A DNA stretch of 64,000 bases from an uncultured Candidatus Rokubacteria bacterium (GTDB taxonomy: Bacteria > Methylomirabilota > Methylomirabilia > Rokubacteriales > DASRDR01). The stretch spans positions 256,001 through 320,000 of the forward strand of contig CAVPSB010000031.1 in assembly GCA_963708025.1 (NCBI GenBank), given 5' to 3'. Shown one piece after another: positions 11,417 to 16,095 of this stretch. Each line of letters opens with the position of its first letter. Position 1 is the stretch's first letter. A model generated the notes under the pieces. That model was not told where the DNA came from. It ran no database searches and was given only the letters and a program-made list of their open reading frames with translations. The translations under genes and the position numbers were made by a program.

Positions 11417-11563
11417 TGCCAATCAGGAGTCTCGCGTTTCGCGTCGAGGCGCGCTGGCCGATCCCTGGGGCCCGCGCCGCCTCCGCCCGAGTCCGGGACG
11501 CCGACGCAGGCGTGAGTGGACCGGAGCCGTCCTTCGGAACAGAGCGATTGACGCGATTCGCCT

Positions 11564-11678
11564 CTCGGTCATGGGTGAGGCTCTCAGCACGACCATGATC
11601 TACACTAATCTACACTCACGTTCTGAACCGCGCCCGGGCGCGGTCCGAAGTCCGGCGGACCGGAAGTTCCGCACATGA
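11564..11678 (+). pseudogene. intI: Integron integrase 3' remnant
   Basis: Across frameshifts it reads LGH...STTMIYT/HVLNR/PGAVRSPADRKFRT*, the IntI C-terminus with the catalytic Tyr; ATCTACACT duplicated at 11598-11606 and 11608-11616. Confidence 0.85.
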
Positions 11679-11822
11679 CGCCATCGCCCTCGGCTGGCGC
11701 CGCGCATCGTCTGACCAGACTCGACGGTTCCGCAGAGCACGGACGGCTTCCGCACGACGGCGTGACCTAAGCTGTGGAAACTCCACGTTGAGGTTTCCGG
11801 TCGATTCCGAGCCCTACGCGGC

Positions 11823-11831
11823 TGCTACACT
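11823..11831 (+). promoter_or_regulatory. Candidate cassette promoter Pc (extended -10 TGcTACACT)
   Basis: TGn-TACACT about 50 bp upstream of the first GTT core; no good -35. Confidence 0.4.
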
Positions 11832-11855
11832 GCAGCGCACGCTGCGTCACCGTTT

Positions 11856-11885
11856 CTCGACGGTTCCGCCGAATTCACGTTAGCC
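11856..11885 (+). other. Putative attI site
   Basis: GTTAGCC core at 11879 starts cassette 1 with no attC hairpin before it; CTCGACGGTTCCGC direct repeat at 11720-11733 and 11856-11869. Confidence 0.6.
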
Positions 11886-11902
11886 CGCTTCAGGAGCACA
11901 TA

Positions 11903-12469
<567 letters not shown>

Positions 12470-12560
12470 AGTCTATGATTCCCAGGTCGTCGTTCCTTCT
12501 ACATCGGGCCGCCAGCGGTCGCTTGGCGTGTCGCACTTAGCATGCGAATTCGCGGAAGCG

Positions 12561-12568
12561 GGCTAACA
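12561..12568 (+). other. attC1 left part (R'' box), cut off by IS insertion
   Basis: GAAGCGGGCTAAC (12555-12567) is the exact reverse complement of the cassette start GTTAGCCCGCTTC (11879-11891). Confidence 0.85.
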
Positions 12569-12599
12569 CTTATCAGGCCCCCGGTTGTCAAGAGGAGAC

Positions 12600-13090
12600 A
12601 CCGGTCCGTTCGCGGGAGCGGGAGGGTTCCCGCGTGACGAGGCGGCCCCGTTCGGCGCAGCGAGCCGTGCGCTGACTTGATTTCGAAGGCGGCGTCAGAC
12701 CACGTGGTCTGCACCAAACACTTATTGACGCTCAATCTGGCGACCGGACAGCCGTCGGGTCCCCAGAGCGGAGAGGGCATCTCCGCGGCCTAGAAACTCA
12801 TCGGTGCCCTCCTGCCGGCCGACTCAATGCGGGCGGGCTCTGGCGCAAGACCAGTCCCAGTTAGCACGCAGCTCGGGGGAGGGGCAGCCCACAGCGCTCG
12901 GGCCGATAGGGCGCCGAGAGGAAGGTCGAGCGGGCACGGCGTCCAATCAACGCACCGGACTCCGGGACATGCACGGCCCACATGCCGGCACGCGGTCGCG
13001 GCCGCAGGAGACGACGCGGCATCACGGTCGGGCTCAGTCCCCGGGCGGGTCCAGTTAGACGGCAGGCTCATCCGTGCCCCTCGAGCGCAA
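12600..13090 (-). ncRNA. Predicted bridge/seek RNA in the IS 3' non-coding region (boundaries approximate)
   Basis: About 525 nt non-coding downstream of the transposase, as in IS1111 elements; short segments match the IS ends and the attC target. Confidence 0.6.
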
Positions 13091-13094
13091 GCGG

Positions 13095-14291
13095 TTAGCC
13101 GGTGGCGGTCATGACGGCCTCCGGGGGATTGGCGGTGGGGACAATGGACCGTGGCTTCCGAGCCCCGCGCCGCCGGGCGCCGGCGATCGCCGGGTCCAGC
13201 GGAGCGTCGGGCTCGACCTCGGCGCGCACCGGCGGCGCCGGGGTGGTGGGCAGGGGGAAGAAGCGGGTCGCATCGAAGGCCTGCTCGCGGTGGAGCATAT
13301 AGTAGATGGCCCGCGCGAGCTTGTGGGCCAGGATGGTGAGCGCTTTGGCCTTGCCGTGCTGCTGGGCGAGGCGAGCGACGTACCGCTGGGCCGCGGGATT
13401 CTTGCGCAAGCTGAGGACGGCGGCCTCGGAGAAGGCCCACTTGAGATGGACGTTGCCGATCTTCTTGCCGGAGTATCCATAGTGCTTCCCGTCGGACTGC
13501 TTGGCGCACTTGACGAGCCGGCAGTAGGAGACGAAGTCCTGGACGCGCGGGAAGCGGTGGATGTCGTGGATCTCGTAGAGGAGCACGAGCGACAGGATCT
13601 TGCCGATCCCCGGCACGGAGCGGAGGCGGTAGAAGGCGTTGACGTCGTGGACCTTGGCGCTGCGGGTGAGATGCAGCTCGAGGTCGGTGAGGAGCCGATC
13701 GTAGTGGTCGAGGAGGTCGAGGTTCGTCTCGATGCTCTTGCGCACCTCGGGATCGGCAAACTGCTCGGCCACGTCGGTCCGGTTGGCTTTGTAGGCAATC
13801 TTCTTGCCGAAGGTGGGCAGGATGTACTGGCTGGTGGTGTTCTGGATGTGGGTCAGGAGCTCGGCGCGCTGGCGCATGAAGTGGCACCGCCGGCGCAGCA
13901 GGTCCCGGGTGGCCCGCATCTCGCGCGGGTAGACGTAGGCCATCGGCAGCATACCGCCGCGCAGCAGCACGGCGATCTTGTGGGCGTCGATCTTGTCGTT
14001 CTTGGCCTTGCCGCCGTGGATCGCCTTCATGTACAGGGCGTGACCGAGGACGAAGGCGATCCCCTCCTGCGCGCAGAGGTCGGCGACCCAGTACCAGGTG
14101 AAGATGCACTCGACGGCCACCACGATGTCCTCGCGGTATGCCGCGATCGTGGCCAGCAAGTGCTCCGGGGTGGCGGGGCCATTGCGGTGGACGCGCACCT
14201 TACCCTCGGCGTCCAGCACGCAGATGTACATCCGTCGGGCGTGCAGATCGATCCCACAGTAGTATCGGTGCTGCGCAGTGTAGAATCTCAT
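13095..14291 (-). CDS. IS110 family transposase/recombinase
   Basis: GIDLH, AVEC, KNDKIDA (DEDD RuvC), SVPGIG, QSDGK serine motif, AHKLARAIY; ATG 14291 with GGAGGAG SD. Confidence 0.96.
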   Translation of the reverse strand: MRFYTAQHRYYCGIDLHARRMYICVLDAEGKVRVHRNGPATPEHLLATIAAYREDIVVAVECIFTWYWVADLCAQEGIAFVLGHALYMKAIHGGKAKNDKIDAHKIAVLLRGGMLPMAYVYPREMRATRDLLRRRCHFMRQRAELLTHIQNTTSQYILPTFGKKIAYKANRTDVAEQFADPEVRKSIETNLDLLDHYDRLLTDLELHLTRSAKVHDVNAFYRLRSVPGIGKILSLVLLYEIHDIHRFPRVQDFVSYCRLVKCAKQSDGKHYGYSGKKIGNVHLKWAFSEAAVLSLRKNPAAQRYVARLAQQHGKAKALTILAHKLARAIYYMLHREQAFDATRFFPLPTTPAPPVRAEVEPDAPLDPAIAGARRRGARKPRSIVPTANPPEAVMTATG

Positions 14292-14380
14292 CCAGTCTCC
14301 TCCTTGCCCCGGCGGGGCGGTGTTGTTTGGCCGCAATCACCTTACCCTGACGTGTGGCAAGGGGGGGCCTGGATGAGGAT

Positions 14381-14438
14381 CAACTCGCTCCAGCCGACCC
14401 CTCGCTGCGCTCGGGGCGGCTGAGCTCGGCCGTTAGCG
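14381..14438 (+). other. attC1 right part (L''-loop-L'-R')
   Basis: GCTC(C)AGCCG pairs with CGGCTGAGC leaving an extrahelical base; R' GTTAGCG at 14432-14438. Confidence 0.88.
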
Positions 14439-14453
14439 GGCTGAAGGTGTCGC

Positions 14454-14933
14454 GTGGTTGATCGTGCAGACGAAATGCTGGCCCGCATTGCCGGCGCGAT
14501 CGTGCCGCCTGCGGTTCGACAGCAGACGGAGCATGCGGCTCTTCACGACCTATACGCGGAGATTCCGATCAGATTCCCGGTTCTCTACGAGGACCTGATC
14601 CTTGGGTATCGGTGGGAAGCTGGTGCGGAACTCGGCTCGTTGGAGCTTCTCGCGAACCCAATGGGGCATGCATCGCTGGCAGGCCTTCTGGTATCGATTC
14701 GCTACGATCCGCACCTGGCGGCGGCCTTGCTGCCCGCGAGCCTCGTGCCGTTCGCGCGGCCAGCCGGCGGGAGCTATGACCCAGTCTGCTTCAGGAAGAG
14801 CGCGGGCGTACGTGACTGCGAGGTTGTCCAGATCGATCACGAGAGCATTCTCTGCAACCACAAGATCAAGGTCACCGCGGTCCTTGCCCCGAGCTTTCGG
14901 AGGTTGGTCGAGAATGTGCTGTCAGCCCGCTAA
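14454..14933 (+). CDS. Cassette 2: hypothetical protein, SMI1/KNR4 (SUKH)-like
   Basis: YDPVCF...EVVQIDHE...LAPSF..LV resembles the SUKH C-terminus; stop TAA lies in the R'' box. Confidence 0.6.
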   Translation: MVDRADEMLARIAGAIVPPAVRQQTEHAALHDLYAEIPIRFPVLYEDLILGYRWEAGAELGSLELLANPMGHASLAGLLVSIRYDPHLAAALLPASLVPFARPAGGSYDPVCFRKSAGVRDCEVVQIDHESILCNHKIKVTAVLAPSFRRLVENVLSAR

Positions 14934-14959
14934 CAAGCGCGTTACGCACAACGTTATGC
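14928..14959 (+). other. attC2, internally deleted (32 bp)
   Basis: R'' CGCTAAC and R' GTTATGC only 18 bp apart; TCAGCCCGCTAAC (14922-14934) complements GTTAGCGGGCTGA (14432-14444). Confidence 0.75.
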
Positions 14960-15057
14960 GGCATTCGACGCCGTGCGGCGTATCCTGTGTGATGGCCGCT
15001 ATGGCCAGAAGCCGGCATTGGCTGCCGCTGCGGATTGACCGGCCAGGTCACCAAAGG

Positions 15058-16095
15058 ATGCCCGGCGCGATAAGAACCGCTTGCCTGGTGCTCCCGTTGT
15101 TGTTGACGTCCTCGCTCGCGGAGGCGAACGGGAAGGATATCGTTCTCGCCGATAGCCGGAGCGATGAGATAAGGAAAGGGACAGTTATCGGAAGTAAGGG
15201 ACGACATCTGAACGCCGATGACCGCATACGCGATCTCCTCGGCCACCCAGCCTTCGCCGGTTTCGCGAGGCTGCTGTTGCCGTGGGATGGCCGTAGCTAT
15301 GACCAAGCCATGCGCCTGAGCGATATCGGCTCGCTCCTGCCGTATCACAGCCACGTGGATCCTAAGACGGTGGTGGGCGCACTCAATCGCATGATCGACG
15401 ATGTAAATAGCGGTCACGCCGTGTTCTTCCCGTTCTACAGCGAAGAACAGAAGCAGAAGCAACCCGCACGCGAACATACAGGTTTGTTCTTCTTCCGCGG
15501 AAAGCCCAGTGCTCCCTTCGCCGTGATATCCCCCGGCGGTGGCTTCTCCTATGTTGGGGCCGTCCACGAAGGGTTCCCCTATGCCAGCGAAATCAGCGCC
15601 ATGGGCTACAACGCTTTCGTGCTGCGATATCGCGCAGGCTATGGCGGCGCAGTGGCCACCGAGGATCTAGCTGCAGCCATCTCCTACATCTTCCGCAACG
15701 CGAAGGCGCTCGGCGTCAGCGTCCGAGACTACTCCCTTTGGGGAAGCTCGGCCGGCGCAAGGATGGCGGCTGCCATCGGTTCGCACGGCGTTGCCGCCCA
15801 TGGTGGCGACATGATTCCAAAACCGTCAGCGGTCGTGATGGCCTACACAGCCCATTCAGATCACTCGTCCGCTGAGCCTCCGACCTTCGTCGTGGTCGGC
15901 GAACAGGACGCAATCGTGCCGCCGGCTTCGATGGAAAGGCGAATTGCGGCCCTGCGCAGCGCAGGAACAGAGGTGGAGTACCATAAGTATAGAAATCTCG
16001 GTCATGGCTTCGGGCCAGGAACCGGGACCAGCGCCGAAGGCTGGATCGCGGACGCCGTTCGGTTCTGGGAAAAGTTCATCACCCAACGGAACTGA
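15058..16095 (+). CDS. Cassette 3: secreted alpha/beta hydrolase (esterase-like)
   Basis: Signal-peptide-like N-terminus from ATG 15058, PGGGF oxyanion loop, GSSAG nucleophile, GEQD, HGFG. Confidence 0.88.
   Translation: MPGAIRTACLVLPLLLTSSLAEANGKDIVLADSRSDEIRKGTVIGSKGRHLNADDRIRDLLGHPAFAGFARLLLPWDGRSYDQAMRLSDIGSLLPYHSHVDPKTVVGALNRMIDDVNSGHAVFFPFYSEEQKQKQPAREHTGLFFFRGKPSAPFAVISPGGGFSYVGAVHEGFPYASEISAMGYNAFVLRYRAGYGGAVATEDLAAAISYIFRNAKALGVSVRDYSLWGSSAGARMAAAIGSHGVAAHGGDMIPKPSAVVMAYTAHSDHSSAEPPTFVVVGEQDAIVPPASMERRIAALRSAGTEVEYHKYRNLGHGFGPGTGTSAEGWIADAVRFWEKFITQRN

Follow-up and report, generated by a model that had tools for sequence, protein, structure and literature searches.

A 64,000-nt stretch of DNA from an uncultured Candidatus Rokubacteria bacterium (assembly GCA_963708025.1, contig CAVPSB010000031.1, positions 256,001–320,000; hereafter the window) carries an insertion sequence (IS) of the IS110/IS1111 kind, in which the noncoding region that follows the transposase gene is predicted to encode a guide RNA with two target-type loops, T1 and T2, and one donor loop, D. 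Comparison of the region with its relatives indicates that this architecture is real and family-wide, and it amounts to a new form of bridge RNA or seekRNA, with tandem target-type loops, in a previously uncharacterized IS1111 lineage that seeks the attC sites of integrons. Our reading of the whole system is that the IS enters the R' box of attC sites with the help of this RNA, D serving as donor loop, T1 as site-specific target loop and T2 as a second target loop of low specificity; we give this reading a probability of roughly 0.55.

Three Modules Recur and Fold across the Family

All features described here lie on the minus strand and are numbered from the first letter of the window. With the TG core counted at both junctions (14381–14382 and 12567–12568), which were read in the sequence, the IS spans 12567–14382. 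The left junction reads ...GAGCGAGT-TG, then ATCCTCATCC, its core being at 14381–14382 and the IS starting after it with ATCCTCATCCAGGCC. The right junction reads ...CCTGATAAG-TG, then TTAGCC, the IS ending at 12567; the right-end letters before the core can be written as GGCCTGATAAG-TG, then TTAGCC. The TG thus stands once at each junction, and the empty site reconstructed from both is ...GAGT-TG-TTAGCC.

A first-pass annotation, made from the letters of this DNA, had pointed to three paired motifs downstream of the transposase gene and had left it unsettled whether they exceeded chance. All six motifs are found on the minus strand exactly where it had placed them, and each pair falls into one structural unit, delimited by nhmmer searches and folding. 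In T1 (12924–13087; ~160 nt), a long closing stem and a GAGCC box are combined with an internal loop that bears the guides and with a large, branched inner domain; the unit holds the motifs TCTAACTGG (13051–13059, by sequence reading) and GCGTTGA (12947–12953). T2 (12801–12892; ~88 nt) is a compact target-type loop with a simple hairpin and holds GCTAACTGG (12857–12865, by sequence reading) and GCATTGA (12824–12830). D (12668–12811) places the donor loop in a multi-branch setting, followed by a GGUGCAG hairpin and a GAAAYCAAGUCAG tail, and holds GATGAGTTTCT (12792–12802, by sequence reading) and ATAAGTG (12719–12725).

Relatives were collected in a scan of one genome per species, which found 533 of them, and the best 80 (58–86% transposase identity) were used; together with the window and a second copy from the same genome, L002, they make up the 82 sources of this analysis. 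The genomes of the relatives are nearly all metagenome-assembled and belong to many phyla. Profile hidden Markov models (HMMs) of the units, built from an alignment of 58 complete 3' regions and searched with nhmmer, found T1 in 78, T2 in 79, and D in 77 of the 82 sources, the order of the modules in the 3' noncoding region being T1, T2, D; the same profiles also served as anchors for the extraction of the guides. The two T units share a common frame, given by the family consensus on the 5' side as GAGCC, 6 or 7 bases, CUAAC, and a UGG that leads into the inner helix, and on the 3' side as AGCC(C), a few bases leading to a variable stretch, then UUGA and U(N)GG. The earlier remark that both T loops of the window are preceded by GAGC and 6 or 7 bases therefore extends to the family. 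In example loci, the 5' half of T2 is itself picked up, weakly, by the T1 profile (e.g., L007 2761–2819, E 0.019), which gives more than one match in 10 loci.

The folds of the three units were then compared across loci. For T1, a structure of 18 pairs (12 in the closing helix plus two short inner helices), tested on 72 distinct sequences, leaves 89.1% of cells paired, against 69.0% after shuffling (none of 500 shuffles as high) and 32–46% for slid alignments; 282 compensatory cells are spread over 17 of the 18 pairs, with a covariation score of 0.630 against 0.09–0.15 when slid. The 11 closing pairs of T2 are formed in 98.9% of cells (slid, 30–55%) with 60 compensatory cells, values that none of 500 shuffles reached in either case, and the 18 pairs of D are formed in 89.8% of cells (slid, 31–50%) with 85 compensatory cells. 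The collection of homologs and alignment of 3' regions that the first-pass annotation had proposed as a check thus finds the motifs conserved and inside loops closed by conserved helices.

A few copies show individual peculiarities. The second copy, L002 (same genome, contig C18, 1508–3350), is 86% identical to the window copy, has the same ends, and lies in another attC-like site (...TCTAAC...GTGA-TG|TTGGGC); its transposase gene is frame-shifted, with only 88 aa open from the ATG. The mean column identity of its T1, T2, and D, all retained, is 88%, and the copy could still be moved in trans or act as a source of RNA. In L022 (2571–3339), ~570 nt are inserted between T1 and T2, and in L016 (2830–3103) the D match spans 274 nt against the 132 positions of the D profile, as it does, by likeness, in L017; the flanking modules are intact in these loci. 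L038 (2920–3311) carries two copies, 245 nt apart, of the segment that runs from the D 3' guide to the right end, both of them ending in GGCCTTATAAGTG; the right end may have been duplicated in tandem, or the event may have been abortive.

Guide Strands of D and T1 Follow the IS Ends and the Host Flank

D is predicted to be a donor loop that reads both ends of the IS. Its 5' guide GATGAGTTTC (12793–12802), identified by pairing across loci, is complementary to the left end, of which it pairs positions 1 and 3–8 and never position 2. At positions 6 and 7 the pairing covaries, with frequencies of 0.79 and 0.72 for the own end versus 0.50 and 0.56 for the ends of other loci (cross-pairing), and over the whole strand the own mean is 6.02 and the cross mean 5.36. 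Its 3' guide (12717–12725), recognized by its match to the right end, consists of ATAAG, the core TG, and TT; it repeats the core and the five right-end bases before it, the own-locus identity at these five positions being 0.93–1.00, with no match further out, and at its variable base (A, G, or T) the own agreement is 0.93 and the cross agreement 0.43. For each of the two strands, permuted partners reached the observed mean in none of 10,000 trials, and a control pairing of the D guide with the left flank was flat. The covariation of both strands bears out the earlier view that the D motifs match the two IS ends.

T1 is predicted, on the same comparative grounds, to be a full target loop whose 3' guide reads the left target flank. 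Its 5' guide GTCTAAC (13054–13060) can base-pair with the top strand on the right side of the target (core G, then TTAG...); with wobble allowed, over 51 loci, it pairs right-target positions (RT) 1–6 at 0.69–0.98 and RT7 at 0.53, and it is at chance beyond. Its 3' guide (12946–12954), established by flank covariation, consists of TGCGT, the core TG, and AT, the family consensus at this strand being TTGATTGG. Over the five bases left of the core, this guide agrees with its own flank at 0.46–0.73 and with the flanks of others at 0.26–0.62, and no signal extends beyond five. Over nine bases the own mean is 3.78 and the cross mean 2.77 (0 of 10,000 permutations), and with one locus per distinct guide the five-base means are 2.88 and 1.79 (0 of 20,000 permutations). 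Because the flank is host DNA, the match is not a product of the shared descent of the element. At least four of the five bases match in 27 of 72 loci, where 6.2 would be expected from cross-pairing, and the match is complete in L056, L047, L011, and L019, although the flanks of these loci depart from the usual ending ...TTG (...GTTGGA-TG in L056 and ...TTGAA-TG in L047). A control pairing of the T1 guide with the right end was flat. In the window copy, three of the five bases left of the core match, and the 5' guide pairs the core G, RT1–4, and RT6.

The 3' strands continue for 2 nt past the core, a feature beyond those given in the first-pass annotation. In IS621, two core-adjacent guide bases are described as pairing with the other partner after strand exchange and as pushing the reaction forward, the so-called handshake rule (PMC11208158, PMC13626964). 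The rule is followed here: the bases after the T1 core are AU, and the IS begins with AT; D has UU(UGG) after its core, and TT(AGG) comes next in the target; T2 has an A at this place. The AT of T1 and the TT of D are hence handshake-like copies of the first two bases of the IS and of the target, respectively.

The inner domain of T1 (window 13003–13020, also in the T1 consensus) contains a further conserved GAGCC box (GGG..GAGCC.G) with no CUAAC after it, which could be a nested protein-binding motif.

T2 Is a Second Loop of the Target Type

T2 has a 5' guide GCTAAC (12860–12865), placed by pairing, and a 3' guide (12823–12831), placed by weak flank covariation, that consists of CGCAT, the core TG, and AG. 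In the window it matches three of the five bases left of the core and pairs the core G with RT1–5. The base after its core is A in 74 of the 75 rows that have a T2 3' strand (by eye; only L022 departs), the next base being variable, and by the handshake rule this A marks T2 as a loop of the target type. Toward the left flank, the 3' guide gives a signal at positions −4 to −6 only (own 0.36–0.48, cross 0.19–0.32). With one locus per guide, no permutation in 20,000 reaches the flank match, and at least four of five bases agree in 9 of 72 loci (2.8 expected). Compared directly, T1 matches the flank better than T2 in 42 loci, equally well in 15, and less well in 15; T1, rather than T2, is the main programmable loop. 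The conservation of T2 across the whole family argues against a decaying relic. Its flank signal is weak and may not be independent of that of T1.

Some other roles for the T loops were considered and rejected. T2 (or T1) might have read the R'' arm of the attC palindrome, and neither tracks it (1818/5000 and 1723/5000 permutations); this arm mostly has CG (32 of 34 loci) where the T guides have UG. A T loop might also have been an excision hybrid, made of a target 5' strand and a right-end 3' strand; the T2 3' strand is, by eye, unlike the right end. Pairing of the T2 5' strand with an extension of the D 3' strand inside the RNA fails on a misfit of letters, likewise by eye.

Weighing the Readings

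Several results weigh against the reading that we prefer. The 5' guides do not covary with right-flank positions 5–10, either for T1 (1562/10,000) or for T2 (4389/10,000), which is to be expected if the R' box hardly varies; the box faced by the T1 5' guide is almost invariant. The match of T1 to its own flank is imperfect, with a mean of 2.9 of 5. The covariation results come mostly from one insertion site per element, from loci that are related to each other, and from guide windows anchored by our own profile HMMs. Folded by itself, the 528-nt region of the window is no more stable than its shuffles (z −0.58). Neither a cassette array nor an adjoining integron integrase was found around the site within the window. 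For T2, the 5' guide pairs, across the family, RT1–4 only (0.55–0.98) and is at chance from RT5 on; the flank signal of its 3' guide is small (mean 3.18 vs. 2.69; reached by 1 of 10,000 permutations, or 45 of 10,000 when wobble is counted). The signal is absent (1.69 vs. 1.54; 3826/20,000) from the 35 loci in which the T1 and T2 guides share at most two of five bases, a subset that drops the loci matched by both guides and hence makes a test biased against T2. At mismatches between T1 and the flank, the match rate of T2 is 0.27 (control, 0.21).

Transcript data add to these points. In four libraries labeled RNA-Seq, from soil and sediment metagenomes, contigs at least 85% alike cover parts of the element, its noncoding region among them (X5 record 26, 12704–13090; X4 record 17, 12690–12950; X1 record 1, 12752–13090; X2 record 9, 12604–12756), the X1 library having a genomic source label and being RNA by guess. 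These contigs are mostly 85–95% alike and so come from relatives, with sampled-word shares of only 0.04–0.09. They give neither strand nor ends and may be DNA, and we do not count them as expression. The RNA is presumably transcribed and bound by the transposase.

The simplest alternative to any guide RNA is that the motif pairs are chance matches of 5–9 nt in a GC-rich spacer. The shortness of the matches in the window, the ordinary fold energy of the region, and the lack of an Rfam family in a search of 11500–15500, where sub-threshold hairpin look-alikes alone appeared, at E 0.68 or worse, all agree with it. It is contradicted by the conservation of the units throughout the family, by stems with compensatory change, by guides that covary with flanks and ends, and by the flat controls, so that we regard it as extremely improbable. 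Since the fold of the single window sequence is ordinary, the comparison across loci is what carries the case for structure. On the question left open in the first-pass annotation, the recurrence of the three pairs in 77–79 of 82 sources and their covariation under permutation both exceed chance.

A more serious alternative accepts T1 and D as the whole bridge and denies that T2 reads DNA: T2 would be a duplicated target loop that now serves RNA structure, the docking of protein, or RNA processing, perhaps as the binding site of a second transposase dimer or the precursor of a separate short RNA, with CUAAC and UUGA kept for contacts with protein or RNA. Such a loop would account for T2 guides that are at chance past the invariant core of the site, for a flank correlation that is not independent of T1, and for stems and a loop frame more uniform than those of T1 (98.9% paired, with few pair types at most positions). 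It would also account for the copies in L025, L026, L040, L047, L060, and L081, which differ in their T1 guide and have the same T2 3' strand or one that is a single base off (by eye). It sits badly with the retention of a complete target-loop frame (GAGCC box, distance to CUAAC, UGG entry, UG core, and handshake A), with the variation of the 3' guide positions across the family, and with an own-flank match above the cross-locus rate (1/10,000; 0/20,000 with one locus per guide). We hold this alternative to be rather unlikely, though well worth keeping in view. The data themselves fit T2 as a short-guide target loop of low specificity and, equally, as a duplicated loop kept for some other reason.

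The two T loops might instead act jointly in one complex, one of them on the target flank of a resident copy, or on one attC, and the other on a new attC, in which case a single RNA molecule would allow target-to-target strand transfer (direct transfer) or would aid excision. A preprint on an IS110 element describes a pathway in which a truncated RNA with only the target loop and a full bridge RNA together pass the left junction straight to a new target (10.1101/2025.10.25.684509), and another report describes dimers loaded with target loops as able to bind both junctions of an integrated element (PMC13626964); in the IS family studied here, both target-type loops lie on one RNA. That pathway is, however, known from the IS110 group and not from IS1111. 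Neither T guide tracks the R'' arm of attC (1818/5000, 1723/5000), T2, with its short guides, would grip a specific flank only weakly, and nothing speaks directly in favor of joint action, which we consider improbable.

We thus keep to the reading in which D is the donor loop, T1 the site-specific target loop, and T2 a target loop of low specificity. The stronger form of it, in which a single guide RNA has two working target loops in tandem, a programmable T1 and a short-guide generalist T2 that serve divergent attC sites or two target DNAs at once, is put forward tentatively. Of the original proposal that two slightly different guides let one recombinase recognize variable attC sites, the second target-type loop stands; its supposed function is conjectural, the T2 5' strand pairing TTAG only and the 3' signal being weak. 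Likewise, the idea that both T loops read the target holds for T1 through its covariation with the left flank, and for T2 it is reduced to a shared frame and a weak flank signal that may not be independent of T1.

The Target Is an attC-Like Site Split at Its R' Box

The left part of the target (14383–14437; sequence and DNA fold) comprises an R'' box GCTAAC (14432–14437), an imperfect L''/L' hairpin, and a 5-nt spacer to the core, and the right part is TTAGCC (12561–12566; sequence), to which the core G is added to give an R' box of GTTAGCC. The GTTAGC that spans the insertion point and the GCTAAC of the R'' box are reverse complements of each other. Folded as DNA, 14381–14440 gives a bulged hairpin of −16.3 kcal/mol (z −1.83; 12 of 200 shuffles equally good). 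The R''...R' layout of the flanks is of the integron attC type, with the insertion at G|TT of an attC-like R' box, and the attC-type target suggested at first, with CTAAC as its R'' box, is confirmed by the R'' GCTAAC, the bulged hairpin, and the R' GTTAGC.

The sites of the relatives follow the same pattern. Their right flank begins with TT in 50 of 56 loci (TTAG in 25, TTGG in 11, TTAT in 5, TTAA in 5, and TTCG in 4), and the core G plus right flank fits a strict GTTRRRY in 30 of 56. Their left flank ends in TG in 77 of 78. Many left flanks resemble GTCGGCTGCAGCGnnTTG, with a CTAAC-G...AGCTCAGC arm 50–130 nt upstream, and a crude pattern, NTAAC[GA] at 40–145 nt upstream of the insertion, occurs in 34 of 77 loci. 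From these counts in the right and left flanks, we conclude that the family lands at G|TT of attC R' boxes.

The window site seems to be a solitary attC-like element. No second similar site was found in the window, where a search for further attC-like sites returned one unrelated match, and the insertion site is neighbored by genes of PriA-like and hydrolase-like kinds. The sole strong match to an integron integrase in the genome is on a different contig, C24, near whose end an integrase-like gene (97846–98792) gives two adjacent partial matches (profile positions 1–191 and 192–315; 236 and 200 bits).

Transposase, Ends, and a Predicted Junction Promoter

The transposase gene (13095–14291) encodes 398 aa plus a stop and was identified by Pfam and NCBIfam matches: DEDD_Tnp_IS110 (PF01548, 7.3e-15), Transposase_20 (PF02371, 2.3e-18), and NF033542, "IS110 family RNA-guided transposase" (211 bits, cut-off 140). 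These matches uphold the earlier assignment to IS110/IS1111. Noncoding DNA amounts to ~90 nt on the 5' side of the gene and ~525 nt on the 3' side of its stop codon (13095). The window transposase extends ~53 aa past residue 345 (13095–13255), where the matches of most relatives stop, and this C-terminal tail is, by eye, rich in Pro, Ala, and Arg.

The left end ATCCTCATCCAGGCC includes a subterminal inverted repeat, CCAGGCC (14366–14372, within 14366–14380), that pairs with GGCCTG at 12574–12579. The right end GGCCTGATAAGTG (12567–12579; by sequence reading and comparison with relatives) includes this GGCCTG. The repeats are set in from the ends by 8 nt on the left and by 7 nt on the right, and both are retained in relatives; at 6–7 bp, they are at or just under the lower bound of the 7–17 bp range quoted in PMC11208160. 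Descriptions of the IS1111 group define it by a short 5' leader, a 3' noncoding region, and subterminal repeats (PMC11187229, PMC11208160). On the strength of its domains, its downstream noncoding region, its subterminal repeats, and its shared TG core without target duplication, the element is classed here as an IS1111-type IS of the IS110 family, an assignment made from sequence features.

A TTGACA (12586–12591) is the −35 half of a predicted promoter that the left end would complete in the circle. TTGAC is present just upstream of the right end in all 60 loci with a mapped right end, and a −10-like element, read by eye in the left end, is GATACT in most relatives and GATCCT in the window copy. 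Junction promoters have been described for ISEc11 and IS621. The 5' leader (14292–14365; sequence) can form a long hairpin (within 14292–14375) in which the Shine-Dalgarno sequence AAGGAGGAG is paired to a C-rich stretch inside the left end, and comparable C-rich and AAGGAGG stretches are seen by eye in the leaders of relatives. This hairpin may block translation of read-through transcripts. An Rfam search of the leader returned sub-threshold hairpin look-alikes alone (E 0.68 and 1.6).

The first core base varies at the right junctions of relatives (corresponding to window 12567–12569; GTG in 39, GGG in 14, GAG in 6, and GCG in 1 of 60). The D 3' strands, judged by eye, are nearly all GUG at the core, L071 having GCG and L015 departing elsewhere in the guide. 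This base may be derived from the target, which would mean that sites with GG or AG cores are used.

A Model for Guided Insertion into attC

In the model that we propose, the 525-nt region would encode a single long structured guide RNA of the bridge RNA/seekRNA kind, with three modules. The element would leave its site as a circle, as expected from its family, and the TTGAC −35 element would thereby meet the −10-like GATACT of the left end, forming a junction promoter that would drive the transposase gene and the RNA downstream of it. One transposase dimer would hold D, loaded with the circle junction, and another dimer a T loop, loaded with the R' box of attC. On the donor side, the D 5' strand would pair with the top strand of the left end and the D 3' strand with the bottom strand of the last five right-end bases plus TG, continuing with UU, the first two target bases, as a handshake guide. 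On the target side, the T1 5' strand would pair to the core G and to some six R' box bases, and its 3' strand with five programmable bases plus TG, continuing with AU, the first two bases of the IS. Strand exchange would then take place at the TG core.

The five programmable bases of T1 would set the preference of each copy among attC variants. T2, with its frame of GAGCC-N6/7-CUAAC-UGG and N-UUG-A, would reach with its guides only the near-invariant heart of the site (YTTG|TTAG). It may be an alternative loader for divergent attC sites, accepting any YTTG|TTAG site, which is a weaker form of the idea first proposed, or it may be the partner of a second target-type DNA, acting alongside T1. 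In either role T2 would presumably contact DNA.

Significance

Bridge RNAs and seekRNAs are described in the available accounts as bispecific, with one target loop and one donor loop. That a second target-type loop has persisted among elements with transposases only 58–86% identical implies a role for it, and the system offers a handle on how variable natural targets are dealt with, on how excision or direct transfer is organized, and on how many RNA loops a tetramer can use. It also represents a second, independent route of IS1111-type elements to integron attC sites. The insertion falls at the position cut by the integron integrase, so that cassette exchange should be disturbed by it. The rules for the guides are simple enough for testing and reprogramming: five bases and TG for a 3' strand, some six bases and the core G for a 5' strand, and two handshake bases. 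If both target loops work, the RNA would be a third architecture beside the bridge RNA and the seekRNA with their one target loop, it would, with two target-type DNAs held at once, permit transfer from junction to target without a free circle, and it would offer a ready model for bridge editors with two targets.

Relation to Known Systems

The elements closest in habit are ISKpn4, ISPst6, and ISPa25, attC-targeting members of IS1111 that are reported to insert at AA*CG, ~10 nt left of GTTAG (PMC13604230). According to the description of their seekRNAs (PMC11187229), they share with the present family a DEDD transposase, a guide RNA downstream of the gene, an attC target, and the order of the guides described for IS1111 seekRNAs, in which the top-strand match comes first (5') and the bottom-strand match second. 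T2, at ~88 nt, is also close in size to the peak seekRNAs of ISKpn4 and ISPst6 (82–86 nt), and in both cases a compact module carries both target matches (PMC11187229). Unlike these elements, the family studied here inserts at TG*TT on the R' box, ~10 nt further right, and not at AA*CG in the L'–R' spacer. Their description has a single pair of target matches, whereas we find two target-type loops plus a covarying donor loop. They are set apart here by description, and their long forms of 148–151 nt could hold a second loop. We take the present family to be a separate attC-seeking IS1111 lineage, the comparison with the classical elements being one of descriptions. In a plasmid collection, 1 of 823 matching records has at least 60% identity to the transposase, and the next among the matches listed has 31%.

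The correspondence with the IS621 bridge RNA, as set out in the accessible parts of PMC11208160 and PMC11208158, lies in internal-loop strands that pair with opposite DNA strands around a 2-nt core, in separate target and donor loops, in two post-core handshake bases that copy the other partner, and in a circle-junction promoter. The RNA differs from that of IS621 in its location at the 3' end, in its reversed strand order, in its core (TG instead of CT), in the multi-branch loop that contains its donor loop, and in having two target-type loops instead of one. A donor loop within a multi-loop is described for many IS1111 orthologs (Durrant et al., PMC11208160). Toward the IS1111 group as a whole, the family agrees in its subterminal repeats, its 3' noncoding region, its family domains, and its shared core without target duplication. 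It differs from the group in the length of the noncoding region (525 nt) and in a ~53-aa C-terminal transposase tail that has no counterpart in most relatives.

The nearest parallel to the doubling of the target loop is CazIS110-1, whose transposition cycle is described as likewise involving more than one target-loop unit (10.1101/2025.10.25.684509). In that case the extra unit repeats the same loop in truncated form and is released as an RNA of its own, whereas here it is a sequence-distinct loop in tandem on the same RNA. The available excerpts of the literature on seekRNAs and bridge RNAs, IS1111, and attC describe one target loop, and we found in them no tandem or second one. The family departs from the standard plan of one target plus one donor loop in that two target-type loops are present in 78 (T1) and 79 (T2) of the 82 sources.

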